From positions 6,594 through 70,593 of the forward strand of contig PWHJ01000221.1 in NCBI GenBank assembly GCA_003554865.1: a stretch of DNA of 64,000 bases. Reading direction: 5' to 3'. The notes under the pieces were generated by a model. That model was not told where the DNA came from, did not search any database, and saw only the letters and a list, made by a program, of their open reading frames with translations. The DNA is from Bacteroidota bacterium (lineage in GTDB: Bacteria; Bacteroidota; Bacteroidia; Bacteroidales; PUMT01). The translations under genes and the position numbers were made by a program. Shown one piece after another: positions 1 through 37,633 of the stretch; position 1 is the stretch's first letter, and each line of letters opens with the position of its first letter.

Positions 1-817
1 GATGTTCTTTACCCCGCGGGTCATCGGTCTCCCACAAGCCATCCATTATCCCTTCGGCTATAAGTGCATAAACGGCTTTGTCGATCGCCTCCTGCACAGC
101 CATATGAGAAGGCTCATTGTAGGTAAAACCAGTTTCTGCCTCCAGTATCTTGTTGAGTGATACAAAGCGGAACAACCCGGAATTGAGTTTTTGAGATAAT
201 ATTGTTTTTGAAGTGTGAACATTTTTTAAGATCCGGCCACTGCTTGTTGAAACTGCCCTGAGATAAACGGAAACCTTGTCTTCGCGGTATTCACCTGAGG
301 CGCCTGCACCAAAATAACGCAAACCCGCGCCCCCTGTTACAATATTGGTTTCATATGATATAATTCCGCCTTCAAGTGTTACGCCGCCAAATAAAAGAGG
401 AGGCACAAGAGGGCCTTGCTGACTTCCACCCTGAAATTGCTCCCGGCTTGATCTTATTAACCTGCGTTCATTTAAAAGATTTGACAAACCTTCACGCTCA
501 ATGGTAACAAACCATCCAGATTCATCAAGCGCCTGCAGAAGTATTGAAGTAGCTCCCTGTGTAACGGCAGTTGACCAGCTGGCACCCACCTCAGAAAGCT
601 TATATTGTCCGCTCTGATCGCGAAACTGATAAACTGCAGCAACAACTTTCTCTTTTGGCTTTGGCAGTTTTCCAAAATCTTCATGAACAGCAGAAAATTC
701 TCCTAAACGTGCTTCTTCAGTAGATGCAGGTACCCTGAATGTAGAATCACATCCTCCCAAAAAAAGTGTGAATAAAAACAAAAGCCGTATTTTTCCTTTG
801 AAAAAGAGGAGATTCAT
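1..817 (-). CDS. csgG: Curli production assembly/transport lipoprotein CsgG (C-terminus runs off the left edge)
   Basis: My own translation from ATG at 817: MNLLFFKGKIRLLFLFTLFLGGCDS (lipobox), then AAVYQFRDQSGQYK, STAVTQGATSILLQALDESGWFVTIEREGLSNLLNERRLIR, LEGGIISYETNIVTGGAGLRYFGAGASGEYREDKVSVYLRAVS. These are classic CsgG blocks. The frame is open to position 1. Confidence 0.9.
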   Translation of the reverse strand, partial: MNLLFFKGKIRLLFLFTLFLGGCDSTFRVPASTEEARLGEFSAVHEDFGKLPKPKEKVVAAVYQFRDQSGQYKLSEVGASWSTAVTQGATSILLQALDESGWFVTIEREGLSNLLNERRLIRSSREQFQGGSQQGPLVPPLLFGGVTLEGGIISYETNIVTGGAGLRYFGAGASGEYREDKVSVYLRAVSTSSGRILKNVHTSKTILSQKLNSGLFRFVSLNKILEAETGFTYNEPSHMAVQEAIDKAVYALIAEGIMDGLWETDDPRGKEH

Positions 818-893
818 ATACTTTTAGTTAATTTTAAATACCACTCACCTTTAAAGTATCATACTTATATATTGCTTCACTAATGCTATAATA

Positions 894-1313
894 CTAATAA
901 TGAGGAATGGTAACGGTTGTCTCCCCTCCGGTTTCTGTATCCAGTATATAGATAACTAATCCGTCAACTCCCGGAGTCACCTCAATTTCATAATTTCCAA
1001 ATACGTAGGTTCCCTCGCCAAAAGCTTCTTCACCAAACTGTTTAGCCATAACCTGACGTGAAAGCTGACTCAAAATTTGCCTGCTCAGGCTTGCCTGAAA
1101 ATCTTCAAGCGGATCGCGGCGAAAGGTATCACGTGGGGTAACTTCCTCTTCAAAATCACTCTGTATTTCTGCTGAATTGAGCAGCCACTGATAATTCAGG
1201 TAATTGCCTCCAAATGCCGGATTTGTCGGTCTGTAGACAAAATCCTGGCTTTTGGCTGCCATTGATGATAAAACAAGAAAAAGAATGAATACTAAAAATT
1301 TTGATAATTTCAT
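894..1313 (-). CDS. csgF: Curli assembly component CsgF-like
   Basis: Signal peptide, then FVYRPTNPAFGGNYLNYQWLLNSAEIQ, which matches the conserved CsgF N-terminal motif. Lies between csgE- and csgG-like genes. Confidence 0.8.
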   Translation of the reverse strand: MKLSKFLVFILFLVLSSMAAKSQDFVYRPTNPAFGGNYLNYQWLLNSAEIQSDFEEEVTPRDTFRRDPLEDFQASLSRQILSQLSRQVMAKQFGEEAFGEGTYVFGNYEIEVTPGVDGLVIYILDTETGGETTVTIPHY

Positions 1314-1413
1314 CTCAGATTGATTTTATGTTGGACTTGTTTTTTTATTTTTTTCAATTATTTTTGTTATTGTAAATGGTTTGTTTGTGCCTTGCGCATA
1401 AATAAAATGTTTC

Positions 1414-1444
1414 AGCTGCCCGCTTCCTGCGGGCAGCTTTTTTT
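1414..1444. other. GC-rich 10-bp hairpin (AGCTGCCCGC-ttcct-GCGGGCAGCT) with a T-tract on the plus-strand side, between csgE and csgF
   Basis: Perfect inverted repeat 1414-1423/1429-1438. The T run 1438-1444 overlaps the csgE stop codon. On the coding (minus) strand the stem is followed by GAAACAUUUUAUUUAU. Confidence 0.5.
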
Positions 1445-1907
1445 AGTAAATGCCGCTTCCTGAAAAATCCTGGCTCTCCATCTGTTCCTGGTCAATTTCA
1501 TAGTCAATAAAGTAGGACTGGGTCTGTTCTATTGCTGCCTGTGCAGCATCAATAATCTCCTGGTAACCTGGCCTGAGAGAAGTTCCATAGACTTGCCGGT
1601 CCTCGACCCTTACGGTTATTATAACCCCCATTCCGGGAACAGGACGTTCTTCTATATATACTGACAATCCGACAACACCGGAAGGATTGCTCCAGTGTTG
1701 AAAAAAATGATTATAAAAATCACTTCCCACCTTTGTTATGGTTTTATTAAATATAAATTCCGTAATTTCTATACCCTCTCCCTCATCCATAACACCCCCC
1801 TGCAGTTCCAGGTCAATTAATCTGGAAAGCTGAGCCTGCACAGAAAAGTAAGGGAGGGCAAGCAATAAAATCAGAGTAAGGATTTTTTTAAATGTCTTGC
1901 AGTTCAT
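1443..1907 (-). CDS. csgE: Curli assembly component CsgE-like
   Basis: Signal peptide, then FIFNKTITKVGSDFYNHFFQHWS and VYIEERP...GVIITVRVEDRQVY, which resemble CsgE conserved blocks. Gene order is csgE-csgF-csgG. Confidence 0.75.
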   Translation of the reverse strand: MNCKTFKKILTLILLLALPYFSVQAQLSRLIDLELQGGVMDEGEGIEITEFIFNKTITKVGSDFYNHFFQHWSNPSGVVGLSVYIEERPVPGMGVIITVRVEDRQVYGTSLRPGYQEIIDAAQAAIEQTQSYFIDYEIDQEQMESQDFSGSGIY

Positions 1908-1923
1908 ATTTTTTCTGTTTAAT

Positions 1924-2220
1924 TTATATGCTTGAGTGATATATCACATTTTTTTCACTTTCGGAAACCATAAAATAAAGTTCATCCGGGTTTACCAGCA
2001 TTAACTGACAGGGTTGGGAAAACTCATTATTCAATCTTTTCAGCATAGCGTAAAAGACATTAGGTTCAGTTCCAAAAATTATCACAAGGCTGATTGTTTC
2101 CAGTTTTTTTAAAACATTAATTGCTCCGTCAATATCATTTGATATATTAAAGGAGTCGTCCATTACCTCATCCTCCATCTCCACTCCGATCCCGTGTTTT
2201 CCTATCAACAGTATTTTCAT
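1924..2220 (-). CDS. Small receiver-like (pseudo-receiver) protein; first gene after the sigma-54 element
   Basis: MKILLIG...DGAINVLKKLETISLVIIFGTEPNVFYAMLKRL follows a CheY-like beta1/alpha/beta3 pattern but has no acidic pocket or acceptor Asp. The family call is tentative. Confidence 0.45.
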   Translation of the reverse strand: MKILLIGKHGIGVEMEDEVMDDSFNISNDIDGAINVLKKLETISLVIIFGTEPNVFYAMLKRLNNEFSQPCQLMLVNPDELYFMVSESEKNVIYHSSI

Positions 2221-2253
2221 TTAATTTAATTGTATTATTCTAACATAAATATA

Positions 2254-2269
2254 TGCATAATATATGCCA
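2254..2269 (-). promoter_or_regulatory. Candidate sigma-54 (-24/-12) promoter TGGCAT-ATATT-ATGCA
   Basis: The minus strand reads TGGCATATATTATGCA. GG (2268-2267) and GC (2256-2255) have exactly the spacing of consensus TGGCAC-N5-TTGCW. The -12 GC lies about 35 nt upstream of the ATG at 2220. A sigma-54 activator gene sits immediately upstream. Confidence 0.55.
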
Positions 2270-2510
2270 CTCCGAATATTTTCTTGATTATGTGAGACTT
2301 ATGACAAATTTTGCAAGTTAAAAAATGACCCATTTTTGTCCGTTTGCGGTCAAAAAAAACACAATTTATTTATAAACCTTATTGGAGGTGATTAAAAAAT
2401 GCTTAAATGATGTGACCGGATGCGGGCAGGTGGTAACTAAACGGGCACTGCCAAACGGCGCCCACAAAGTACTGACAAACAAAATGTTAATATTGAAAGA
2501 ACAGGGGAGG

Positions 2511-3887
2511 TTAGTCCTGGATTATGGAATATTTTTTTATTTTCCTGTCAAGGGCCTGTCTTGATATATCGAGTACTTTTGCGGCTCTTGTCTTATTGTA
2601 ATTGCAGCGCAATAACGCTTTTTTGATAGCAGTCTTTTCAACGCTCTGAAGGTTAAGCCCATCACCGGGAATAAACATACTGCTGTCTCTGTTAAATAAT
2701 TTAATATGCTGAGCTCTGATAGTGCTGTCATCACAAATTATTGTTGCGCGTTCAATAATATTTTTCAACTCCCTTACATTTCCGGGAAAATCATAGTTTA
2801 ACATTTTATCGTAAACATTATCTTCAATATTTTCAATATTTTTCCCGAGTTTCCTGGAAAAATAAGCAGTATAATAGTTGATCAGCTCGGGAACATCCTC
2901 CTTTCTCAGGCGCAGCGGCGGTATATTTATTGTGAATGGACTTATCCGGTAATATAGGTCAGGCCGGAATTCATTGTCGGCCACCATATTTTCCAGATTT
3001 TGATTGGTGGCTACTATAATTCTGACATCAATATTTATATGTTTTCTTTCTCCTATCTTGCTGATCATTTTGTTTTCCAGTGCCCTTAAAAATTTAGACT
3101 GCATATTTAAGGGCAACTCTGAAACCTCATCAAGAAAGAGGCTTCCATTTTGTGAAATTTCAAACCATCCCGGCGTACTTTCAACAGCTCCAGTGAAAGC
3201 TCCTTTCTTATGTCCAAAAAATTCACTTTCGAAAAGATTTTCAGGTATGGATGCGCAATTGACAGAGTGGAAAAATTGTCGGGATCTTTTGCTTAAGGCA
3301 TGAATGCTGCGTGCTATCAGCTCCTTGCCTGTTCCGCTCTCACCTGTAATAAGAACAGTCGTTGAATCAGACCCGGCAACCTTGTCCACCAGATTTATTA
3401 CTTCCTTTATTGCCGGACTTGTGCCAACTATCTCTAGTTTTGTTTTTCTGTAGAGATCGGAACATATCCTTTTATACTGCAGATCATTTTCAGTATATTT
3501 TTTTTGAAACTCAGCAAATGGCCTGATTCGTTCCAGAGTTTTCTTTAATTGCTTTAAATTAAAAGGCTTCAGCAAAAGACCATCAGCTCCGGCTAAATAG
3601 GCATCATAAAGATCTTTTGAATCACTCTCCTGATTTACAATAATCACTAAAGTCATTAATGAATTCAAAGACTTTAATTTCCTGATAAGCTCAATTGAAG
3701 CAGAATTCTCAGGCGCCATGAATAAAAAAACAATGTCAATACCTTCCTGACTTAGTATATTTACCCCCTCTGAAATGTCTAAGCTTTTATAAACATCGCA
3801 CCCGCTTTTGAGTAAATAATTATCAAGCAAGCCACCGTTTTTGAAGCTATCTCCAAGAATTAATATTTTTAATTTTTCAACCACCAT
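2511..3887 (-). CDS. Sigma-54-dependent transcriptional activator (NtrC family: receiver + AAA+ + Fis-type HTH)
   Basis: Walker A GESGTGKELIARSIH, intact GAFTGA loop (GHKKGAFTGAVES), ESEFFGH, RIIVATN, and C-terminal HTH (NKTRAAKVLDISRQAL). The N-terminal receiver has DIVFLFMAPE where DxxxxD is expected. Confidence 0.9.
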   Translation of the reverse strand: MVVEKLKILILGDSFKNGGLLDNYLLKSGCDVYKSLDISEGVNILSQEGIDIVFLFMAPENSASIELIRKLKSLNSLMTLVIIVNQESDSKDLYDAYLAGADGLLLKPFNLKQLKKTLERIRPFAEFQKKYTENDLQYKRICSDLYRKTKLEIVGTSPAIKEVINLVDKVAGSDSTTVLITGESGTGKELIARSIHALSKRSRQFFHSVNCASIPENLFESEFFGHKKGAFTGAVESTPGWFEISQNGSLFLDEVSELPLNMQSKFLRALENKMISKIGERKHINIDVRIIVATNQNLENMVADNEFRPDLYYRISPFTINIPPLRLRKEDVPELINYYTAYFSRKLGKNIENIEDNVYDKMLNYDFPGNVRELKNIIERATIICDDSTIRAQHIKLFNRDSSMFIPGDGLNLQSVEKTAIKKALLRCNYNKTRAAKVLDISRQALDRKIKKYSIIQD

Positions 3888-4240
3888 TTTAAACTTACTC
3901 GTTTTATGAAGCGGCTTAAAAAAAATGTTACTGAAATGTTGAAGAAATCAAATAGTGAGATAGGCCTTTTTGTTTAAAGACCTTGCATTAACCCTGTTGT
4001 ATGGAAAAATTGTTTAATTAACAAGTTTCTTAGTTCAATGCTAATATAAAAAATTTATTTAACATTAATTAATAAAAAAAATTGTTAGCTTGTCACAAAA
4101 CCCTAATTGATCAAAACACAAAAACAATTAGTCAGAGTAATTTAACCTTTAATCAAAAATACAAAAACCTGAAAATACCCATGATGAAGTTGAAAAAAAC
4201 CAACCACCAAGGGTCCGGAATGAAAACACGTTTTTAAAAA

Positions 4241-7200
4241 TCAAACATTTGCAATCCGCTCTTTTATCCATTCCCGGGCATTTATAAATGCGCTCAGCCA
4301 TGGGGATATCTCGTCCCTGCAGCGTTCACCAGGATAATGTGCCCAGTTCCAGGGATATAAAGAGCGCTCAATGTGGGGCATCATTGCAAGGTGTCTGCCG
4401 TCGGGACTGCAAACGGCGGCGGCAGAAAAGTCTGAACCGTTCGGATTGCCGGGATACTCTTTATATGTATATTTCACCGGTATGGTGTAATCACCCTCTT
4501 TGCCGGGCAAAATGAACCTTCCCTCGCCATGGGCTATCCAGATACCAAGACGGCTTTCTGAAAGCGAGCCGAGCATTACAGTATCATTTTCAGGGATATC
4601 AACATTAACAAAAGCTGACTCGAACTTGCCGGAAGTGTTGATCCTCATTTCCGGTCTCCCTTCCCCGTGTATTCCAAGTAACCCCAACTCTACCATAAGC
4701 TGGCACCCGTTACAGACACCCAGGCTGAGGGTGTCTTCGCGTGCATAAAACCTGTCAAGGCTCTCCCTTGCCTTCTCATTGAAAAGAAAAGCACCAGCCC
4801 AGCCCTTGGCCGAACCAAGAACATCGCTGTTGGAGAAACCTCCCACAAAAACTATCATATTAACATCCTCAAGTGTTTCATCCCCGCTTATAAGGTCAGT
4901 CATATGCACATCTTTCACATCCATTCCGGAGAGATGCATTATCCATGCCATCTCCCTGTCACCGTTAACACCTTTTTCCCTTATTACTGCAGCCTTAACA
5001 CCACTCCGCTCCCTGCGATCAGCATCAATTCCGTACTGTTCAAGCATACCGGAAAAATCAAGAGGGAACCTGTAGGACAAAACCTGACCGGGATAATTGC
5101 GGAACCTTTCACGGGCAAGCTCCTCGCCCGACTGCCTCCTGTCAAGCAGGTAAGAAGAACGGTACCACACATCCCTGAGCTTGTCAATATCAAAGGAGTA
5201 TTCGCCATTGCGGGAGGTAGCTATGGTGAATTTCCTCCCGTTGTTATACCTCCCGATAAATTTTGCATCCACCCCCTTTTCAAACAAAAAATCCATGATC
5301 CTTTCGGGATCATCGACCTGTAAAACCACGGCCGGCTTCTCAGAGAAAAGAACATGCAGGGGATCCTCATCGAAAAAGGATATATCGGCATGCACTCCGT
5401 CAAGCCTTCCTGCAAAGCACATCTCCAGGAGAGCCGTTATCAGTCCGCCTGCAGAAACATCATGGCCGGCAAGAACCTCCCCCTTTTCAATAAGCTCCTG
5501 CAGAGAATTGAAAGCTTTAACAAAATAAGAAGCATCTTTGACAGTGGGGGCGGTTTTGCCGATATAATTCAGAGATTGTGCAAAACTGCTTCCACCGAGA
5601 TGAAATTCGTCCCGCGAAAAATCTATATACAAAAGTGAGCTGCCCGGTATATTTTTCAGGTTCGGGGTAACCGGCCTGTTTATATCTTTCACCTCGGCCG
5701 CGGCAGATATAATAACGGTCCCGGGTGCATACACCACAGTACCGTCTTTGTATTTTTGGGTCATTGAAAGGGAATCCTTGCCGGTAGGTATATTTATACC
5801 GAGGGATTTTGCAAAACCGGAAGTCGCCTCCACGGCCCTATAAAGACGGCTATCCTCACCCTTGTGCCGGGTGGCCCACATCCAGTTGGCACTGAGCGAT
5901 ACACCTTTAATCCCATCCTGCAGGGGTGCCCAAACAATATTGGTCAACGCTTCGGCAATTGACAATACCGAGCCATTGGCCGGATCGATAAGACCGGGTA
6001 TTGGTGCATGACCTATGGCTGTTGCAACTCCTCTTCCACCACCATGATCAAGGGCCATAACAGCCACGTTGTTCAGCGGCAGCTGAACTTCCCCGGTCGT
6101 CTGCTGCAGGGCAACCCTTCCCGTTACACTGCGGTCAACCTTATTGGTCAGCCAATCCTTGCAGGCAACAGCTTCCATCTGAAGCACCGAGACAAGGTAC
6201 TCCCTGAAACGTTTGGTGTCGAACTGCAGCTCTTCAAATCCGCTCTCCAATGCAGAATCCTTCATAACTGTTTGAGGCGGATTACCAAAGAGCCAGTCGA
6301 GCTGAAGATCCAAAGGCTTAACTTTTTTTACAGTATCCTCAAATGTCAGATGCCTGTCGCCTGTAACCTCCCCCACATCATACATAGGTGCCCGCTCCCG
6401 ATCAGCCACCCTTTTCAAAAAGAACAGATCATGCGGATTGATCACCAGCCCCATTCTCTCCTGCGACTCATTGCCGGCTACCTCTTTTGCTGACAAGGTA
6501 GTATCGCCCACCGGCAACTTGTCCATTTCAATCCTTCCTCCTGTTTCCTCCACCAGTTCGGAAAAACAGTTCAAATGCCCCCCGGCCCCGTGGTCATGCA
6601 CAGAGACTATGGGATTTTTATCCGATTCCATCATGGCACGTATGGCATTGCTCACCCTTTTTTGCATCTCCGGGTTAGAACGCTGAACTGCATTGAGCTC
6701 AATAAAGTTGTCATACTCACCTGTAGCAACTGAAGAAACGGAGCTTCCCCCCATCCCGATGCGGTAATTTTCTCCCCCCATCATTATTATGCGATCCCCC
6801 TTTTCAGGAACATCCTTCATGCTCTCCTTCCTTTTACCGTAACCTATACCGCCGGCAAGCATTATCACCTTGTCATAGCCGTAAGTGGTTTCTTTTTCCC
6901 TATGTTCAAAAGTAAGAAGGCTCCCGCAAATAAGAGGCTGCCCGAACTTATTCCCAAAATCACTGGCACCGTTGGATGCCTTGATGAGAATATCCTCAGG
7001 CGTGCGATAAAGCCATGGCCTGGGCAGTATTCCGCTTTCCCACGGCCTCCCCTCTTCAGTACGGGAATAAGGAGTCATATACACAGCAGTCCCCGCAAGC
7101 GGCACAGCACCCTTTCCTCCGGCCAGGCGATCCCGTATCTCTCCGCCCGTTCCCGTTGCCGCACCGTTAAAAGGTTCGACCGTAGTGGGAAAATTGTGGG

Positions 7201-7939
7201 TTTCGGCTTTAAGGGAAAGGACCGTTTCAACATCCTTTACCTCGAACCAGTCAGCCTTGTCCTGACTGGAGGGAGCAAACTGTCTTGCAACGGGTCCCTC
7301 AAGAAAGGCGCAGTTATCCTTGTAAGCGGAAACCACCCGGTTTGGATTGGTTTTGGTTGTCTGTTTAATAAGCTCAAAAAGTGAATAAAGCTTTTCCTCA
7401 CCGTCAATTATAAACTTCCCGTTAAATATCTTATGGCGGCAATGCTCGGAATTAATCTGAGAAAAGCCGAATATCTCTGTGTCGGTCAGCTGTCTCCCGA
7501 TATGCTCACTCACACTTTTAAGGTAGGCTATTTCCTCCGGACTGAGAGCCAAGCCCTCCTGCCTGTTGTAAGCCTCGATATCTTCTATGTACATTACCGG
7601 ATCCGGCTCCTTCTCAACTGCAAAAACATCCTGTTTAAGAGAATAGTAGGGACTTTCAAGCATCGGATCATACCGGGGGTCATCTTCGGCCGGGAGAAAC
7701 TCCTCTATGCGTTTAATACCGTTTATCCCCATATTCTGGGTGATCTCCACGGCATTAGTACTCCAGGGAGTGACCATCTCGCGGCGCGGGCCAATAAAAC
7801 AACCCTCTACATTTGGAGTATTAAGATAAGAGGCGCCGCCAAAGAGCCATACAAGTTTGTTTATATCGAGATTACTGGGCTGCTTCTTTGCTTCAACGGC
7901 AAAGACCCTGCCGGAGTGTTCACGGAAGAATAATATCAT
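4241..7939 (-). CDS. purL: Phosphoribosylformylglycinamidine synthase, single-chain large form
   Basis: 1232 aa with characteristic FGAM synthase blocks (SEHCRHKIF, ETHNFPTTVEPFNGAATGTGGEIRD) and a C-terminal glutaminase domain (LGVCNGCQLM). Confidence 0.95.
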   Translation of the reverse strand: MILFFREHSGRVFAVEAKKQPSNLDINKLVWLFGGASYLNTPNVEGCFIGPRREMVTPWSTNAVEITQNMGINGIKRIEEFLPAEDDPRYDPMLESPYYSLKQDVFAVEKEPDPVMYIEDIEAYNRQEGLALSPEEIAYLKSVSEHIGRQLTDTEIFGFSQINSEHCRHKIFNGKFIIDGEEKLYSLFELIKQTTKTNPNRVVSAYKDNCAFLEGPVARQFAPSSQDKADWFEVKDVETVLSLKAETHNFPTTVEPFNGAATGTGGEIRDRLAGGKGAVPLAGTAVYMTPYSRTEEGRPWESGILPRPWLYRTPEDILIKASNGASDFGNKFGQPLICGSLLTFEHREKETTYGYDKVIMLAGGIGYGKRKESMKDVPEKGDRIIMMGGENYRIGMGGSSVSSVATGEYDNFIELNAVQRSNPEMQKRVSNAIRAMMESDKNPIVSVHDHGAGGHLNCFSELVEETGGRIEMDKLPVGDTTLSAKEVAGNESQERMGLVINPHDLFFLKRVADRERAPMYDVGEVTGDRHLTFEDTVKKVKPLDLQLDWLFGNPPQTVMKDSALESGFEELQFDTKRFREYLVSVLQMEAVACKDWLTNKVDRSVTGRVALQQTTGEVQLPLNNVAVMALDHGGGRGVATAIGHAPIPGLIDPANGSVLSIAEALTNIVWAPLQDGIKGVSLSANWMWATRHKGEDSRLYRAVEATSGFAKSLGINIPTGKDSLSMTQKYKDGTVVYAPGTVIISAAAEVKDINRPVTPNLKNIPGSSLLYIDFSRDEFHLGGSSFAQSLNYIGKTAPTVKDASYFVKAFNSLQELIEKGEVLAGHDVSAGGLITALLEMCFAGRLDGVHADISFFDEDPLHVLFSEKPAVVLQVDDPERIMDFLFEKGVDAKFIGRYNNGRKFTIATSRNGEYSFDIDKLRDVWYRSSYLLDRRQSGEELARERFRNYPGQVLSYRFPLDFSGMLEQYGIDADRRERSGVKAAVIREKGVNGDREMAWIMHLSGMDVKDVHMTDLISGDETLEDVNMIVFVGGFSNSDVLGSAKGWAGAFLFNEKARESLDRFYAREDTLSLGVCNGCQLMVELGLLGIHGEGRPEMRINTSGKFESAFVNVDIPENDTVMLGSLSESRLGIWIAHGEGRFILPGKEGDYTIPVKYTYKEYPGNPNGSDFSAAAVCSPDGRHLAMMPHIERSLYPWNWAHYPGERCRDEISPWLSAFINAREWIKERIANV

Positions 7940-8127
7940 TTTTTATAAACTTTTGGGAAAGACAAATACAATAATATATTGCGAAATTATAAAAACAATG
8001 TAAGTAATTTTTGTTTTAAAAGAAAAATCCCTTCAGCCATTGAACATATATTGGAAATATTTGTTAACTTGAGTGGCGGATTTAAAAATCCGGCCACAAA
8101 TGTTGAATCCCTTAAAAACATAAAACT

Positions 8128-32006: not shown

Positions 32007-32705
32007 ATGCATCGCAAAGACCTGTTTTTCAGCATTGCAGTAATAATCTTCTTTTTGCCCTTTTTTCTATGGAACCCACTGCTTGAAGCATACAAAGAAT
32101 TCAACCTTAACTACGGGATGGTAACCAGTTTTTTAAAGTTTGCTGTTTTGGCAACACTTGGAGAGGTGATCGGTTTACGCATTAAAACCGGCAATTACAA
32201 CAAGAGGGGGTTCGGCATTCTGCCCCGGGCAATTGTATGGGGTATTATCGGTCTGACCATACAGATGGCCTTCATAATTTTTTCAACCGGTACACCGATG
32301 TTCCTTGAATACCTCGGCGTGGAAGGAAGCACAGGTATGCTAGAGGAGTCTGGTTTGTCAGCGGCCAAAATACTGGTAGCTTTCTCCATCAGCCTTACGA
32401 TGAACATCATCTATGCACCGGTTATGATGACAACTCACAAAATAACTGACACACATATAGAGAATAATGGGGGGACGCTAAGGGGACTTTTCAGGCCCTT
32501 AAAGATGGGAGAGATCATGGCGGGCATAAACTGGAAAGTGCAGTGGGGTTTTGTTTTTAAAAAAACCATCCCCATCTTTTGGATCCCCGCCCATACAATA
32601 ACATTTTTACTTCCTCCGCAACACCGTGTGCTATTTGCAGCTCTTTTGAGCGTAATGCTGGGGGTGTTCCTTGCAGTGGCGGCAATTCTTGGCAAAATTA
32701 AGTAA
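32007..32705 (+). CDS. Hypothetical integral membrane protein
   Basis: Clean 232-aa ORF with about 6 hydrophobic helices. No recognised motif. Confidence 0.6.
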   Translation: MHRKDLFFSIAVIIFFLPFFLWNPLLEAYKEFNLNYGMVTSFLKFAVLATLGEVIGLRIKTGNYNKRGFGILPRAIVWGIIGLTIQMAFIIFSTGTPMFLEYLGVEGSTGMLEESGLSAAKILVAFSISLTMNIIYAPVMMTTHKITDTHIENNGGTLRGLFRPLKMGEIMAGINWKVQWGFVFKKTIPIFWIPAHTITFLLPPQHRVLFAALLSVMLGVFLAVAAILGKIK

Positions 32706-33088
32706 AAAGAGGCTGCATCTTTATAAACAGCCCCCTTTTGTCAATTTGCCGGCAATGTTACTTTTTCAGAATTTTCTTCAGTACCGTCTCCTCCTCCAGC
32801 TTTTTGGTGCAAAAGAACCAGTCTTTGCAATCCAGCTCCTCTTCCTTGCCCTCCATTCTGTTTTCAGCAGCACCGCAGGAAGATGCAGGAGGATACAGTG
32901 ATCATTATAAGCACTGAAAGAGAGGGTTGTGAGGATAAATACAGCTAATTGGAAGAAAAAATTAAAAATAATATTCAAAACATTAAACAAAATTGTTGAC
33001 ACGTAAAATAATTTTTCTTAACTTAATTTTAAAAAACCAAAAACACCCTATTATTTATGTTATTACCTCAAAAATATACAGCTTTAAT

Positions 33089-33661
33089 ATGAAAAAATTA
33101 TATAACCACAGTTTTTCTTTACATACATTTCTATGGGTAATATTTTTTCTGATTCTAATTTCATGCGGGCAAAAACTCTCTCCTGAGGAGGAAATGATTA
33201 GAGATGTCCTGAATAAAACGGTCAATATAAATCTTTTTGACAGCATCAGGAAGGAAGGTGAAGTATTTCATTTTACAGAATTCCGGGAAAAATACGATTA
33301 CATTTCCCTTGTTTACCTTGAAGATGGTTGCAGTCCTTGTTATCCGAGATTTGTTGACTGGCACGGGAAAATAAATTCGTTTCTTAAATATGAAGGCTAT
33401 ACTGTATTATTTGTTATCCGGGCAAACAACTACGTAAGGTTTCTTGAATTTGCATCCGAATATGGTGATGTTGAAGACCATCTTTATTTAGTAGTTGATC
33501 GGCACAATCGTTTTCTTGATAACAACAGGGATATCCCCCGTTCAATTTTAGACCGCTCTATCTTGATTGACAAAAAAAACAAGATCAAGCTAATTGGGCC
33601 TCCTTTGCAACTCCTGAAATGGGGGAACTTTTCCACAGAATTGTTGCCGGAACTGATTTGA
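33089..33661 (+). CDS. Thioredoxin-fold (TlpA/redoxin-like) lipoprotein with CSPC motif
   Basis: ATG at 33089 gives MKKLYNHSFSLHTFLWVIFFLILISCGQ (lipobox). YLEDGCSPCYPRFVDW carries a CxxC. LIDKKNKIKLIGPP resembles the C-terminal strand of TlpA-like proteins. The last 20 aa look out of frame (see findings). Confidence 0.6.
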   Translation: MKKLYNHSFSLHTFLWVIFFLILISCGQKLSPEEEMIRDVLNKTVNINLFDSIRKEGEVFHFTEFREKYDYISLVYLEDGCSPCYPRFVDWHGKINSFLKYEGYTVLFVIRANNYVRFLEFASEYGDVEDHLYLVVDRHNRFLDNNRDIPRSILDRSILIDKKNKIKLIGPPLQLLKWGNFSTELLPELI

Positions 33662-34002
33662 TTTCAGTTGGGACTTCTGAAGGCCCTATTATTGAATTTG
33701 ACAGGGAGATTCAAGATTTTGGTGAAATCCCGGTTGAAAACATTTCCGGACCAAGGGAGATAGAATTTGTTGTGTACAATAAAGGACCAAAGCCATTGGT
33801 GATGACAAATGTTGAATCATGTTGTGGTACAAGAATTAAGAGTTATACAAGAGCACCAATTCATCCCGGTGATTCCGGCTATGTGAGGGTAACCTCAAGG
33901 TTGCAAGCCCGCCAACAGGTAATAAATCATACGGTTACCGTGTACTCGAATGATCAAAACAGGGGAAGATTAGATCTGCAAATTAGGGGTATAGTTAATT
34001 AA
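33619..34002 (+). CDS. DUF1573 domain protein (no signal peptide of its own; probably the frameshifted C-terminal part of the preceding gene)
   Basis: IEFDREIQDFGEIPVENISGPREIEFVVYNKGPKPLVMTNVESCCGT...PIHPGDSGYVRV fits the DUF1573 pattern (FDFGxI...NxGxxPLxI...SCGCT...PGxxG). Confidence 0.65.
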   Translation: MGELFHRIVAGTDLISVGTSEGPIIEFDREIQDFGEIPVENISGPREIEFVVYNKGPKPLVMTNVESCCGTRIKSYTRAPIHPGDSGYVRVTSRLQARQQVINHTVTVYSNDQNRGRLDLQIRGIVN

Positions 34003-34075
34003 CTGCTAAAGTTATTTGAATTACAGAATGTTACATGAATAATATAAAAAATGCCTAACCACAAGGGAAAAAAAA

Positions 34076-34148
34076 GGAAGAGGAAGCAGCAGTGCATCGC
34101 TTGGCAGATACTTCCTCTTCCGGCCTCCCTTTATAAAAATAAAGGAGG
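34076..34148 (+). other. Two adjacent stem-loops (11-bp GGAAGAGGAAG/CTTCCTCTTCC, then CCTCCCTTTAT/ATAAAGGAGG)
   Basis: Perfect 11-bp inverted repeat 34076-34086/34111-34121. The second hairpin, 34124-34148, has a 3' arm that is an AGGAGG box 5 nt before a 5-codon ATG mini-ORF (34154-34171). Confidence 0.5.
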
Positions 34149-34323
34149 TAGATATGCCGGGAGACAAATAAGTTAGAGCAGGTACGCCCTGTTCAAGAAA
34201 AAGGATCTATCTATTCAAATTATGATAGAATATTATTTCTGCAAAAAATGTTTAATATCCATCATTTTACTTACCCAAATGATGATTGTCAGCAAAAGAA
34301 CTTTTATTTAACCTATAAAATTA

Positions 34324-34644
34324 ATGAAAATGAAGAAAAAAAAAATTATAGGCATATCCTCATGTTTATTTATGGCAATTACAATGTTTAGCGTACAGTT
34401 GCTACAGAATAACGAGGATATAGATTTCTCTATTCAAGATATTGCGGTTATGGCTCAAGCTGAAGATGATTATATCGAAGGTCCTTGGGGCACAAATTGG
34501 AAACATTATACCTTAAGATGTACTTACAGTAGAACAATTGGTTTTAATTACATCCTGGTTTTTGAGCAGAGTTCTGAGTACTCAGTAAATAAAAGAGTTT
34601 GCGGCTATGGCTTAGGCACATGCTTGCCGGCTGCAGGATGTTAA
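34324..34644 (+). CDS. Small secreted Cys-containing protein with an NVEALA-like motif
   Basis: Signal/anchor MKMKKKKIIGISSCLFMAITMF, then IQDIAVMAQAEDD (pattern [ND]-[IV]-x-[AV]-[LM]-A-x-x-E, as in the Bacteroidales NVEALA family). The C-terminal part has LRCTY and RVCGYGLGTCLPAAGC. Sits directly upstream of a BF3164-type propeller gene. Confidence 0.55.
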   Translation: MKMKKKKIIGISSCLFMAITMFSVQLLQNNEDIDFSIQDIAVMAQAEDDYIEGPWGTNWKHYTLRCTYSRTIGFNYILVFEQSSEYSVNKRVCGYGLGTCLPAAGC

Positions 34645-34659
34645 TCTATTAAGGGTTAT

Positions 34660-34698
34660 CAACATGTTGGCCATTACACCATTAAGGTCAACATGTTG
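34660..34698. promoter_or_regulatory. Two copies of the 10-bp palindrome CAACATGTTG, 29 bp apart
   Basis: 34660-34669 and 34689-34698 (the second extends to TCAACATGTTGA). Each is preceded by ATTAAGG. They lie in the 124-nt spacer between the peptide gene and the propeller gene. Confidence 0.4.
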
Positions 34699-34768
34699 AT
34701 TCCTGTAAATATTTTTAAAAAAGTAGAATATTTAACAACAATTATAGACATTTGATAAATAGATTATT

Positions 34769-35962
34769 ATGAAACTAATAATTATTGTCTCAGCTTTACT
34801 TCTCATTGCTGGCTGTAATGGTATATGGGAAAAGGGTTCTGCCTTTGAAGATGTTAATACATCAGAGTTTGTCAGAGAATTAAAAAGTGTAGAAAAAATA
34901 AATTACGAACCTGTCAGAATAACTGTTGATAATCTTAATGAGGGAAAAGAACTGTTGCTCTCGGAGGTTATTGATTCAGTATGGTACATCAAACTGGACA
35001 ATTCCACAAGCGCTTTGCTGGGTGATATTGACAGAATTGCTTTTACTGACTCACACATATTTATATTGGACAGGTATAAAACAAAATCTATAAAGAAATT
35101 TGACCTGGAAGGGAATTATATCACTGATATCGGAAGCCAGGGCAGAGGACCGGGGGAGTTTATCGAGCCTACCGATTTTGTCTGTATTGACAATAAGATA
35201 ATAGTTTATGATCAATTTACTCACAGATTGCTTCATTTTAATATTGATGGTACTTTAATTGACGTGCAAAGAGTACCGTTTAGCTTTAACACCTTTTTTG
35301 CATTTAATGAAAACGAGTTTGTATTTCAGTGCTTTGACAGTGATAATGTGCATTTCCCAGAAATATTAGGCTACTCGTTGATTTGGTCTGATTCAACCTT
35401 CAATATAAAATACCGCGGAATATTTACACCACATGAAAAATATATTCCAAGGCTAAACAGGGGATTGGTTCACTCCAACGACGAATTATTATTTGTCAAG
35501 CCTTATAGTGACACCCTTTATCAGGTAAAACAAAACGGCATATTTATTCCTAAGTATTTTATAGATTTTAAACAGTATACAATGCCGGAAAATGAAAAAA
35601 AGAGCTTAAACAACCAAAGCAATTTTGCCTATTTAAGTGACTGTTTTCTGACTGACAATTTTTTCTATTTTAATTTATCATATAAAAACAGAGTATTTCA
35701 TTTTTTTCATTCAGAAAATGATGATAAGTTAAGTTACTTCCATGTACAGCTAAATGATGTGTCTCCTCTCCTGAGATTTTTAAACATCATCTCTGGCAAA
35801 AAAGAAAACATTTTGATTGGATACAACTATTCACACACAATCTATGAAATCTATAAAAAGATAGAAGAGGCCAATCATTTGGAATTGCTTGATAAATACC
35901 GGGATTTTAAGGACGTTAAATTCAATGACAATCTGGTCCTGACATTTTACAAATTAAAGTAA
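34769..35962 (+). CDS. BF3164-type / 6-bladed beta-propeller lipoprotein
   Basis: Lipobox MKLIIIVSALLLIAGCNG. IFILDRYKTKSIKKFDLEGNYITDIGSQGRGPGEFIEPTDF...IIVYDQFTHRLLHFNIDG shows the GxGPGEF repeat signature of this Bacteroidota family. Confidence 0.75.
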   Translation: MKLIIIVSALLLIAGCNGIWEKGSAFEDVNTSEFVRELKSVEKINYEPVRITVDNLNEGKELLLSEVIDSVWYIKLDNSTSALLGDIDRIAFTDSHIFILDRYKTKSIKKFDLEGNYITDIGSQGRGPGEFIEPTDFVCIDNKIIVYDQFTHRLLHFNIDGTLIDVQRVPFSFNTFFAFNENEFVFQCFDSDNVHFPEILGYSLIWSDSTFNIKYRGIFTPHEKYIPRLNRGLVHSNDELLFVKPYSDTLYQVKQNGIFIPKYFIDFKQYTMPENEKKSLNNQSNFAYLSDCFLTDNFFYFNLSYKNRVFHFFHSENDDKLSYFHVQLNDVSPLLRFLNIISGKKENILIGYNYSHTIYEIYKKIEEANHLELLDKYRDFKDVKFNDNLVLTFYKLK

Positions 35963-35983
35963 ACCTCGGGCAAACAGGGAGGG

Positions 35984-36054
35984 TAAACTGATTACCGGTT
36001 TACATCAAAACACCAGAAATAACTCCGTGTTAAACTGGTTGCCGGTTTACATCA
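35984..36054. repeat. 24-nt imperfect direct duplication TAAACTG(A/G)TT(A/G)CCGGTTTACATCA
   Basis: Copies at 35984-36007 and 36031-36054 (22/24 identical). The second overlaps the stop codon and last codons of the 36047-37633 gene. Confidence 0.8.
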
Positions 36055-37633
36055 CAATCGCATAAATTACTCCCAATACTCCCGTTATAGCGAGAGCATA
36101 AACAACCCTTGCTGGCATAATGCCATTATTTTCGGCAGTTTTACCAAAAATTCCGAAAACAAGGGGATGAACAAGAAATGGCATTGCAAAGACAAATGCA
36201 ATAAGTCCCGCAGCCTGCTCACCAAACATTCCCCCCTGAATAGCGGCAAAAAGGCCGAAATGAGAAATAGCGGATGAATTGGCCATTACAGAATCATTCA
36301 AGGGCATTCCCCCCAGGTTTAAAATGAAGAGTCCGCCAAAAACTGCCACCAATTGCCATCCAAGTGAAAATATCATCAACCCCCTGATCTCCCTGGCCTC
36401 TTCATTATTTGCCCGCCTTAAAACCTTGAGTGCCAAAAAAGTTAATATCACACCGGCTGAGACTACCGCAATGGTATGAGGAATAAGCAGTTTATCTGCA
36501 GTAGCACTGGCGGCCAGTATTGAAAATACGAATATGTGGCCTATAAAAGGGATGTTGATCATTATGGGGGCCCTGAATTGCGCTTCGGGACCGAGATCCC
36601 CTGCGGTACAGGCACCGGTTAAACCTGAGTGAGACAACGAACCGGCCATTCCCGGTGCAAGATTACGCATATGATTGGCCTTGCCTGCCAGGATCAGTAT
36701 TGCCAGTCCACCGAACATCCACAACAACTGTCCGAAAAATCCGAATGCCAAAACAGAATTCATTCCGGTAAGTGCAAAAGCCTCCCCGATCCTTGATCCG
36801 CCCACCATAAAGTTGGCAGCCAGGACGACAGGTATACCGGCAAAAAGCAAAGACCTAATGGTGGGACCGTATTTCCAGCGCGAAAAGATCATACCCATGC
36901 TAACGGCCAGAACCATAACAAAAAATATTTCGGGCAGGGCAATATAGGATTTAATCCACTCGGCCACAAGCCATGATAAAAGTAAAACGCCCAATATCAT
37001 TGCCGTCTCAAGGATACCCTTGCGTATATAGACAGGTTTATTGGTGATCTTGGCACGGTAGTCAATCAATATAATAGAACCCACCAGACCCAGATATCCG
37101 AGCAAAGGGTAAAATTCATCCAGAGGCTCGTTGTTGCTGTAACCGATAATGACACGCTTCATTGATTCTATTCCCACAAGCACAAAAAAGGAGCGTATCA
37201 GGAACATGAACTGCGTAAACTTGGTGCCAAGAAACATTTCCTCATCTGAGGGCACAACTATATCCTCCTTATCAATTTCCTGTTTTGCAAAAAGTTTCCT
37301 GATCTCTTGTCCCCCGACAAAAAAAGAGGCACTCAGTGCCGTTATTGTCATCTTGCTTGTAAAATCAATTATGGGGAATTCGCTCAAGCCCGGAGTTCCC
37401 AGCCCACTGGTCTGCAAAACATATCCCATTATCAACCCGAAAACCACAATTATAAGTATTGGCGAATAGCGGGTGCCTGCCACAAAAGTACGGGAGACAA
37501 GCACCATGGTAATAACAAGCAAAAAAGTAAGCCATAACTGGTTCAGGATATGGGCGTTTGCCATCTGTTCTGATAAGTGCTCCATTGAATTACATTTTTG
37601 ATTTTTTGAAAAACCTTCCTTTCCGCTCTTCAT
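36047..37633 (-). CDS. Large polytopic membrane protein, putative transporter of unrecognised family
   Basis: 528-aa ORF with more than 10 hydrophobic helices and a Gly-rich loop GSLSHSGLTGACTAGDLGPE. The start is uncertain (alternatives at MEHLSEQ and MANAHI). Confidence 0.7.
   Translation of the reverse strand: MKSGKEGFSKNQKCNSMEHLSEQMANAHILNQLWLTFLLVITMVLVSRTFVAGTRYSPILIIVVFGLIMGYVLQTSGLGTPGLSEFPIIDFTSKMTITALSASFFVGGQEIRKLFAKQEIDKEDIVVPSDEEMFLGTKFTQFMFLIRSFFVLVGIESMKRVIIGYSNNEPLDEFYPLLGYLGLVGSIILIDYRAKITNKPVYIRKGILETAMILGVLLLSWLVAEWIKSYIALPEIFFVMVLAVSMGMIFSRWKYGPTIRSLLFAGIPVVLAANFMVGGSRIGEAFALTGMNSVLAFGFFGQLLWMFGGLAILILAGKANHMRNLAPGMAGSLSHSGLTGACTAGDLGPEAQFRAPIMINIPFIGHIFVFSILAASATADKLLIPHTIAVVSAGVILTFLALKVLRRANNEEAREIRGLMIFSLGWQLVAVFGGLFILNLGGMPLNDSVMANSSAISHFGLFAAIQGGMFGEQAAGLIAFVFAMPFLVHPLVFGIFGKTAENNGIMPARVVYALAITGVLGVIYAIVM

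Follow-up and report, generated by a model that had tools for sequence, protein, structure and literature searches.

A three-gene cassette is present at positions 33,089 to 35,962 of the window, by which is meant the whole stretch of 64,000 nucleotides (nt) analysed from contig PWHJ01000221.1 of an uncultured Bacteroidota bacterium. It encodes a lipoprotein that joins a thioredoxin-like domain to DUF1573, a 106-amino-acid (aa) peptide precursor with four cysteines, and a six-bladed beta-propeller lipoprotein. The precursor is read as a divergent peptide with an NVEALA-type leader, and its core appears to be exchanged together with the propeller gene. The interpretation put forward here, held to be evenly poised between right and wrong, is that the region is a satellite cassette of a polymorphic system of Sec-exported, disulfide-bonded NVEALA-leader peptides with a cognate propeller, possibly an immunity protein. 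Toxicity, cleavage, disulfide bonds, binding and export of the peptide are all inferred.

The NVEALA-like stretch of the precursor, IQDIAVMAQA, occupies residues 37-46 (nt 34432-34461) and contains the sites V-M-A and A-Q-A. It is followed by a core of about 60 aa, GTNWK..C..C-G-Y-G-L-G-T-C-L-P-A-A-G-C, with four conserved cysteines; the motif and the four cysteines quoted in the first-pass annotation of this DNA are present. Exhaustive phmmer searching of 1.8 billion representatives gave 63 homologous clusters at E<=1e-3, most of them matched end-to-end. Homologues start at the second ATG (34330). The family layout is MKKK and a hydrophobic segment, then D-x-x-L-x-x-[IV]-[EAS]-[AV]-[ML]-A, acidic residues, Y-x-x-G-x-x-G-T-N-W-K-x-Y-x-x-x-C-T, a variable beta region and the end C-G-x-G-x-G-x-C-L-x-x-A-G-C. 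Residues C66, C93, C100 and the C-terminal C106 are near-invariant, and wherever the last of these columns is occupied, cysteine is the last residue of the protein. In the leader, the conserved columns are L37 (52/60), I/V40 (52/61), A/V42 (51/62, 82%) and A44 (54/62, 87%). The NVEALA-type helix thus ends in a small-x-small site of the signal peptidase I type, about 15-17 residues past the hydrophobic segment. The structural model of the peptide (predicted local distance difference test, pLDDT, 67.6) consists of a transmembrane helix (5-29), a short helix (37-46) and a long beta-hairpin (61-93).

No Pfam or NCBIfam model matches the 106-aa protein directly, and the NVEALA model PF14055 (gathering score 27 bits) gives no match to it even at E up to 1, nor to anything in its own genome at E up to 10. 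The proposed resemblance to NVEALA is not borne out by a direct match, but it is by the homologues. Many of them have the exact sequence LANVEALA. PF14055 is matched at E up to 0.01 by 15 of 39 aligned homologues, and six of eight homologues scanned singly score above its cut-off. Homologue P0038 reaches 51.9 bits on PF14055 and E 1.2e-11 to the window protein; P0035 reaches 29.7 bits and E 2.9e-15. BLASTP aligns the window protein with P0038 over the full length (7e-21) and sets IQDIAVMA opposite LANVEALA. The NVEALA layout, an N-terminal hydrophobic segment followed by a L..[IV].[AV][LM]A helix, is found in the window protein. Despite the miss by the hidden Markov model (HMM), full-length homology to proteins that pass PF14055 assigns the 106-aa protein as a divergent NVEALA-leader peptide with a conserved four-cysteine core. 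A lipoprotein reading of the peptide, suggested by the lipobox-like ISSC at residues 11-14, was rejected because the cysteine is not conserved in homologues. A 904-aa phmmer hit (P0054) is a low-complexity repeat protein and was rejected as a relative. In a long, charged, helical-looking 713-aa protein of the representative library (P0069), the repeat KRACG-x-GLGFC-[TGS]-PE, with dibasic sites on either side, recurs six times or more; its loop C-G-x-G-L-G-x-C resembles CGYGLGTC of the window peptide, and it may be an unrelated multi-copy propeptide or a chance likeness.

The propeller matches PF17170 (DUF5128) at E 2.1e-36 and 126.1 bits, above the cut-off of 22.9. Judged by this HMM match, its lipoprotein signal and its G.GPGE motif, it is a member of DUF5128, the BF3164-type lipoproteins. 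The first-pass annotation had described a propeller lipoprotein with a GxGPGEF repeat; the propeller lipoprotein stands, but the motif, the NHL-like GRGPGEF, occurs once (residues 125-131, nt 35141-35161) and is not a repeat. Further matches are to Protein Data Bank (PDB) entry 4raa, a 'putative exported protein' (E 2.6e-8), and to the NHL repeats of TRIM71/Thin. Conservation across propellers is limited to the lipobox cysteine, the G.GPGE motif and some structural residues. No catalytic-looking set of residues is conserved among them, which argues for a binding scaffold and not an enzyme.

The type of propeller follows the type of peptide core. The nearest relatives of the window propeller are propellers that follow peptides of the same core type. 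Among 17 peptide-propeller pairs, normalised core similarity and propeller similarity are correlated (Mantel r 0.84, permutation p 2e-4). The correlation is driven by two clusters of pairs: GTNWK...AGC cores with propellers of 397-424 aa (the window, L073, L077 and L099; L numbers denote related loci) and CPNGC...CYC cores with propellers of 344-345 aa (L004, L027 and L061). Linked genes co-diverge in any case, and recombination breakpoints therefore weigh more than this correlation. Two comparisons show such breakpoints. Between contig C73 of the source genome and L027, identity is 93% over the stretch running from the oxidoreductase gene to the end of the peptide leader; alignability ends at C73 nt 1069, the leader/core junction, and past it core and propeller are unrelated. 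Identity between the window and L028 is about 85% for the oxidoreductase gene, falls to 51-70% in the spacer and rises to 95-96% over core, hairpin and propeller. From the junction breakpoint and the mosaic identity it follows that core and propeller behave like one exchangeable unit behind a constant leader. The arrangement is that of a polymorphic cassette, with a constant N-terminal part and a variable C-terminal part that is exchanged along with the downstream gene. Propellers without a peptide gene are frequent, 14 of 23 in related loci and at least 3 of the 5-6 in the own genome; by analogy they resemble orphan immunity genes.

The linkage of the genes is kept in unrelated genomes, as regards both the peptide-propeller pair and the adjacency of the thioredoxin-like gene. 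Loci were collected from relatives of the thioredoxin-like protein, from whole-genome profile searches (peptide and thioredoxin-like profiles) and with a degenerate DNA pattern for the core, only 4 of whose 55 matches were real; they were annotated with custom HMMs. A same-strand propeller gene of 326-424 aa lies within 450 nt downstream of 22 of 28 leader-bearing peptide genes, a count that includes L028 and L064, added from HMM matches. An intact thioredoxin-like gene adjoins a propeller gene in 10 of 11 loci. In the eleventh, L028, the neighbourhood has just a propeller remnant and, downstream, the peptide-propeller pair. The gene order is peptide (82 aa), propeller, thioredoxin-like protein, S26 signal peptidase and membrane-fusion protein in L004; RND, RND, propeller and thioredoxin-like protein in L001-L003; and transposase, propeller, thioredoxin-DUF1573 protein, peptide, propeller, S26 and propeller in L027. 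Genes for S26 signal peptidases are in or beside cassettes in L004, L027, L062, L067 and L078. In Bacteroides (L077, L099), peptides with a GTNWK...AGC core and an exact NVEALA leader precede propellers of 411-412 aa. No sensor kinase or regulator adjoins the cassette or is found in the loci inspected. The spread is sporadic: of 301 genomes sampled from the order, 13 matched the thioredoxin-like profile, and of 401 from the phylum, 4 matched the peptide profile, in a survey that scored at most 12 candidates per genome and may undercount short peptides.

Further parts of the system are present elsewhere in the source genome (3.2 Mb, 243 contigs, 96% complete). An HMM scan found two peptide genes (window and C73), two thioredoxin-like/DUF1573 genes, five to six propellers and two S26 genes. 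The cassette on C73 is a paralogue of the window cassette with the same gene order. Positions 1-4401 of that contig encode an in-frame thioredoxin-DUF1573 protein, a 98-aa peptide with a similar leader and an unrelated six-cysteine core, an unrelated 386-aa propeller, a 432-aa protein and the start of another propeller. Of the S26 proteins, the one on C123 (465 aa) is apparently the housekeeping LepB. The other S26 gene, cut by the contig start, is on C161 (3-9000) and is followed by genes for a membrane-fusion protein, two RND pumps and a probable outer-membrane protein; it is near-identical to the S26 fragment that follows the thioredoxin-DUF1573/peptide/propeller cassette of L027. C73 and C161 may lie next to each other on the actual chromosome. 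Since the S26/RND operon is on C161 and none is in the window cassette, the latter is taken as a satellite of a locus elsewhere. Searches for DsbA, DsbB and VKOR detected none of them in this genome (96% complete), which gives a dedicated oxidoreductase a rationale, as has been argued for bacteroidetocins (PMC6671954). General Dsb machinery is absent in Bacteroides, and bacteroidetocin loci bring their own thiol oxidoreductase (PMC6671954).

Four co-directional open reading frames (ORFs) are called on the + strand of the region, at 33089-33661, 33619-34002, 34324-34644 and 34769-35962. Coordinates and strand agree with the first description, but not the count of four genes: the cassette has three, as the first two ORFs are one split fusion gene. 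The second of these ORFs is DUF1573, as had been stated (PF07610, E 7.7e-18, 64.8 bits against a cut-off of 26.1, full model length 1-98), though as half of a fusion. It also matches the NF041425 OS_HP2 (seleno)protein family at E 2.3e-13, under the cut-off of that model. Some DUF1573 members are selenoproteins (UGC) (PMC9312934). The DUF1573 ORF is called from ATG 33619 and by itself has no signal peptide. In the DUF1573 part, the window and the in-frame C73 copy are 76% identical.

A word-indexed database search gave about 30 relatives of the first ORF, almost all of them lipoproteins of about 180 aa. They share the motif VYLEDGC-x-PC; C81xxC84 is invariant in an alignment of 27 sequences. 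Their C-terminal helix (...LIGPPFASxxMAELFYxIC) is absent from the first ORF of the window and lies in the DUF1573 frame, upstream of the DUF1573 ATG (FATPEMGELFHRIV). The reading frame is uninterrupted in the C73 paralogue and in metagenome locus L028. These in-frame copies and the helix in the other frame identify the two ORFs as one gene for a lipobox, a thioredoxin fold and DUF1573. DNA comparison of the window, C73, L027 and L028 places a 1-nt deletion in the Tyr codon at 33605/33606, beyond which the called ORF runs on in the wrong frame to 33661. L027, a metagenome contig with ambiguous bases (JGI sample 3300000557), has 2 additional nt in the same codon. Programmed frameshifting came into question because L027 too would need a -1 shift at this codon. 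It was rejected, since neither CCT CCT TTG nor CCG TTT ATG is an X XXY YYZ slippery site, transcriptional slippage would call for a longer T run, and L027 has ambiguous bases. Neither site being a slippery heptamer, both changes are read as mutation or sequencing error and not as recoding. Both halves of the gene are still open and keep all conserved residues, which suggests a very recent change or an assembly error.

The product of the first ORF is predicted to be of the thioredoxin superfamily (TlpA/ResA/DsbE type) by fold and not by a curated sequence model. No Pfam or NCBIfam model, including the thioredoxin models Redoxin, AhpC-TSA and Thioredoxin_8, matches it at E up to 1, and the family profile has no sequence match in the PDB. 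An AlphaFold2 model built with the family alignment (pLDDT 82.8) has a strand at 71-78, C81SPC84 and a helix at 86-98; its wrong-frame tail is of low confidence. Foldseek gave 129 matches at E<=0.001. All 50 of the matches listed are to the thioredoxin superfamily (TlpA, DsbE, ResA, Sco-like and AhpC types), the best at 6e-6. The earlier designation as a CxxC redoxin lipoprotein is right on these grounds of fold and invariant CxxC. Fusions of this kind also occur in the Bacteroides NVEALA loci L067, L077 and L078, as lipoproteins of about 290 aa in which another thioredoxin subfamily (C-x-S-C) is joined to DUF1573 (SCGCT); in L067 and L078 they adjoin the signal peptidase gene. The fusion is therefore a recurrent component of the system. 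In L078 (Bacteroides sp. GD17, NZ_JBCEZS010000005.1), a second thioredoxin-DUF1573 copy (7301-7998) is frameshifted at the start of the DUF1573 domain and sits beside an intact 291-aa copy and the S26 gene; the GTNWK-type peptide of this locus is truncated. Decay of extra cassette copies seems common. Another pairing of DUF1573 with redox functions is seen on C240 (13911-15597) of the source genome, where a stand-alone DUF1573 lipoprotein is encoded beside a 377-aa multi-pass membrane protein whose C-terminal soluble domain is thioredoxin-like by eye.

The region has a GC content of 34.4%, the genome 42.5%; equal-sized windows as low make up 2.8% of the genome. The AT-richness seen on first inspection is thus a departure from the genome average (lowest 3% of genome windows). 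The two spacers, 321 nt (34003-34323) and 124 nt (34645-34768), have exactly the lengths first given, and their folds are more stable than shuffled sequence. The 321-nt spacer folds at -69.2 kcal/mol (z -2.8; 0 of 100 shuffles as stable), and its tandem hairpins are probably the terminator of the oxidoreductase gene. The 124-nt spacer folds at -32 kcal/mol (z -5.3); its hairpin is a likely attenuator or terminator between precursor and propeller. L028 retains this hairpin; of 15 other peptide-propeller spacers at least 49 nt long, 13 have an unrelated hairpin in the equivalent place. The placement fits an attenuator giving more precursor than partner transcript, and attenuators that favour the precursor over the partner transcript are known in many bacteriocin operons. 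Scans for sigma-70 promoters and intrinsic terminators showed no enrichment over shuffles. The Bacteroidetes -7 motif TAnnTTTG is absent from the + strand of the cassette spacers, and an Rfam scan of 32600-36200 found nothing credible.

The cassette occupies a variable chromosomal slot. Relative G002, of the same genus, keeps the flanking genes for a TspO-like protein, a 232-aa protein and a 528-aa membrane protein, with about 7.3 kb of other genes between. Its slot between the 232-aa and 528-aa genes (L018, G002:C38, 1590-8800) holds genes for an outer-membrane protein, a LolA-like protein, an MMPL/RND-type exporter, a TetR protein and an SLC13-like anion transporter. In the window, the 528-aa gene is convergent to the cassette, and positions 35984-36073 are a tandem imperfect duplication of 43 nt; in reverse complement, the remnant reads GVISGVLM-stop and the real gene end GVIYAIVM-stop. 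The remnant marks where the inserted or replaced segment ends on the right, and it looks like a scar left when recombination in the flanking gene replaced the cassette. Internally deleted propeller remnants, in which the lipobox end is joined to the C-terminal end, are present in L028 (1-280) and L027 (2653-2769) and are like the propeller on C2; the remnants in L028 and L027 are a sign of rapid turnover. Immediately upstream of its thioredoxin-DUF1573 gene, L028 further contains 51 nt that match the C161 S26 gene. The features of the cassette are listed in Table 1.

Table 1. Features of the cassette and of its right edge (window coordinates).
Feature	Position	Strand	Description
Fusion gene, N-terminal part	33089..33605	+	Lipobox LISC (Cys26), thioredoxin-fold domain, CSPC (Cys81/Cys84)
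Frameshift site	33605..33606	+	Base missing in Tyr codon (TAT read as TT) relative to C73 and L028
Fusion gene, C-terminal part	33607..34002	+	Last thioredoxin-like helix, linker, DUF1573 immunoglobulin-like domain with vicinal Cys (ESCCGT)
Two tandem hairpins in 321-nt spacer	34076-34121, 34123-34149	+	RNA fold
106-aa precursor	34324..34644	+	Basic N-terminus, hydrophobic helix 5-29, NVEALA-like helix 37-46, four-Cys core
15-bp hairpin directly 3' of peptide stop	34658..34700	+	Arms ATCAACATGTTGGCC / GGTCAACATGTTGAT
397-aa six-bladed beta-propeller lipoprotein	34769..35962	+	Lipobox LIAGC (Cys16); PF17170
Remnant of 528-aa gene 3' end	35984..36026	-	81% copy (direct repeat) of true end 36031-36073

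The following sequence of events is proposed. The precursor would enter the Sec pathway by its basic and hydrophobic N-terminal segment, for which a helix is predicted. The extra S26 peptidase linked to the system would then cut at V/A42-x-A44 (VMA in the window peptide, which has AQA at 44-46 in addition). The thioredoxin-fold/DUF1573 lipoprotein, to judge from its fold, motif and linkage, would oxidise or isomerise the four-cysteine core; in this copy the gene is frameshifted, and the partial, in-frame paralogue on C73 would serve. The propeller would recognise the variable core and not the constant leader, as the co-variation and the shared recombination units suggest, and would most likely protect the producer (immunity) or else escort the peptide. 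Release of the peptide may be by the pump encoded beside S26 on C161 (membrane-fusion protein, two RND proteins and outer-membrane protein), given its linkage. The conserved hairpin 3' of the precursor gene may hold transcription of the propeller below that of the precursor. The first-pass annotation had pictured a small secreted peptide that is oxidatively folded or processed and then presented or bound at the cell surface, with a role in signalling, bacteriocin-like activity or adhesion; this is supported in part, with three genes in place of four and an oxidoreductase that is interrupted here, and with a function that is still inferred. The three refuting checks named with it (NVEALA match, linkage and composition) did not overturn it, and the findings narrow it towards a polymorphic peptide whose propeller partner is specific for the core. 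A wider claim is that the system, with its thioredoxin/DUF1573 oxidoreductase, is a new phylum-wide class of Gram-negative bacteriocin systems, whose polymorphic peptides are exported by Sec and knotted by disulfides, with distal A-x-A cleavage by a dedicated peptidase, RND export and core-specific propeller immunity; the beta-propeller lipoprotein would then be a new type of immunity protein. This claim is tentative and rather less than probable.

Several points weigh against the satellite-cassette interpretation. Co-variation of core and propeller is partly expected from co-inheritance, a concern that the mosaic breakpoints lessen and do not remove. Genes for S26 and for a pump are missing from the cassette, and a frameshift interrupts its oxidoreductase, so the cassette may be inactive here. 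A CxPC-type motif such as CSPC is more typical of the reducing proteins TlpA, ResA and CcmG than of DsbA-type oxidases. The peptide model is of moderate confidence only (pLDDT 67.6). No promoter was recognised for the cassette by the sigma-70 scan or by the search of the spacers for the -7 motif. Bacteroidetocin producers lack immunity proteins (PMC6671954), and immunity is therefore not a given in this phylum.

The propeller might instead mature, chaperone or act as receptor for a specific core, in which case the peptide would be a signal or some other secreted, non-toxic product, similar to a ribosomally synthesized and post-translationally modified peptide (RiPP) or to a pheromone. The co-variation of core and propeller fits any specific binding partner, the NHL-type repeat of the propeller is shared with the protein-binding NHL domains of TRIM proteins, and bacteroidetocin producers need no immunity protein (PMC6671954). 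The reading is unlikely all the same, although it deserves some weight: the many propellers without a nearby peptide gene are hard to explain for a dedicated maturase, the propellers share no conserved catalytic residues, no sensor kinase or regulator accompanies the cassette or the loci inspected, and core and partner are swapped together at the leader/core junction, as in toxin-immunity modules. Retention of the peptide in the envelope is very unlikely. It would be anchored by its N-terminal helix in a complex with the propeller and would have a structural, adhesive or sensing role. The repeated linkage of extra S26 and efflux-pump genes to the system and the strong conservation of the A/V-x-A site speak against this, and the hairpin of the precursor gene, implying an excess of peptide, fits a released product better. 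On its side are the membrane tethers of both partners and the distance of the small-x-small site from the hydrophobic segment (about 15-17 residues), which is atypical for signal peptidase I.

Loss of function in this copy is a separate matter. The cassette could be a decaying, non-functional remnant, its oxidoreductase a pseudogene and its peptide-propeller pair carried along by recombination without selection. The frameshifted fusion gene, the want of S26 and pump in cis and the decay seen in relatives (L027 shifted at the same codon, the broken second copy of L078, thioredoxin fragments in L063 and the internally deleted propeller remnants of L028 and L027) are all in line with this. The reading is nevertheless considered distinctly unlikely. 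The ORFs for peptide and propeller are unbroken and share 95-96% identity with those of L028, the halves of the split gene are open with all conserved residues, as after a very recent change or an assembly error, and the genome has, in trans, both an in-frame (partial) paralogue and the S26/RND operon.

NVEALA and DUF5128 are catalogued Pfam families without a described function. If the interpretation as a satellite cassette is true, NVEALA and DUF5128/TolB_like, both common in gut Bacteroides and in environmental Bacteroidota, would gain one, either as weapon peptide and antidote or as a peptide with a specific partner. For bacteriocins, such a path of processing and export, with a distal A-x-A leader, an extra signal peptidase I, an RND pump and a thioredoxin-DUF1573 oxidoreductase, is undescribed. 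The window adds that the system extends to an environmental bacterium from the same order as gut Bacteroides, that cassettes can be satellites apart from the peptidase/pump operon, and, by clean breakpoints, that core and propeller move as a unit. The GTNWK...AGC core is also present in cultured Bacteroides (e.g. Bacteroides sp. GD17, where the copy is truncated), so the proposal is directly testable in laboratory strains.

No relevant paper on NVEALA, DUF5128 or BF3164 was found in the searchable literature, and the main text of a paper on RiPP mining in Bacteroidales (PMC10352776) makes no mention of propeller, signal peptidase, thioredoxin, cysteine-rich or disulfide. The closest counterparts are the pairs of NVEALA (PF14055) with DUF5128 (PF17170) or TolB_like (PF15869) in Bacteroides, which have the same leader architecture and the same downstream propeller lipoprotein. 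The window cassette differs from these in that the leader, IQDIAVMAQA, has drifted below the Pfam threshold, that the host is an uncultured Bacteroidota metagenome-assembled genome of 42.5% GC in which the cassette is a low-GC insert, and that the oxidoreductase is of a separate CSPC family without a Pfam model.

The fusion protein is like TlpA/ResA/CcmG/DsbE and the relay of the alpha (immunoglobulin-like) and gamma (thioredoxin-like) domains of DsbD in its tethered thioredoxin fold, the CxPC at the start of helix 1 and the immunoglobulin-like domain with a cysteine pair. Unlike these, it has no sequence-level match to a thioredoxin Pfam model or PDB chain, and no CcdA/DsbD membrane domain is encoded nearby. 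In the tapA-sipW-tasA operon of Bacillus subtilis, a dedicated signal peptidase I is encoded together with its substrates, the amyloid fibre proteins. The present system is similar in having an additional S26 peptidase in an operon of specific exported substrates; it belongs to another phylum, and for the window cassette the peptidase is in trans (C161). In effector-immunity islands of contact-dependent growth inhibition (CDI), Rhs and type VI secretion systems, a constant delivery part is joined to a variable part that is swapped with the downstream gene, and unpaired partners, foreign composition and decay are usual. Junction breakpoints, unpaired partner genes, foreign composition and frequent decay are found in the cassette too, whereas its variable part is 40-60 residues long, disulfide-rich and without a recognisable toxin domain, and the partner is a lipoprotein propeller of 350-420 aa, not a small cytoplasmic immunity protein.

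Bacteroidetocins (class IIf; PMC6671954, PMC8546649) are likewise small, secreted, four-cysteine peptides of Bacteroidota with a dedicated thiol oxidoreductase adjoining and no general Dsb machinery. They differ in their 15-aa double-glycine leader, peptidase-domain ABC transporter and five-transmembrane-segment protein, and they have neither a propeller nor an immunity protein. The peptide of the window has no double-glycine leader, and no peptidase-domain ABC transporter was seen in the window cassette or in related loci. The present system has in their place a Sec-type leader ending in A-x-A, a linked S26, an RND pump and a core-specific propeller, and no sequence similarity connects the two. 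Measured against characterised systems, the cassette is a variant of bacteriocin-like peptide loci; measured against database families, it is a divergent member.

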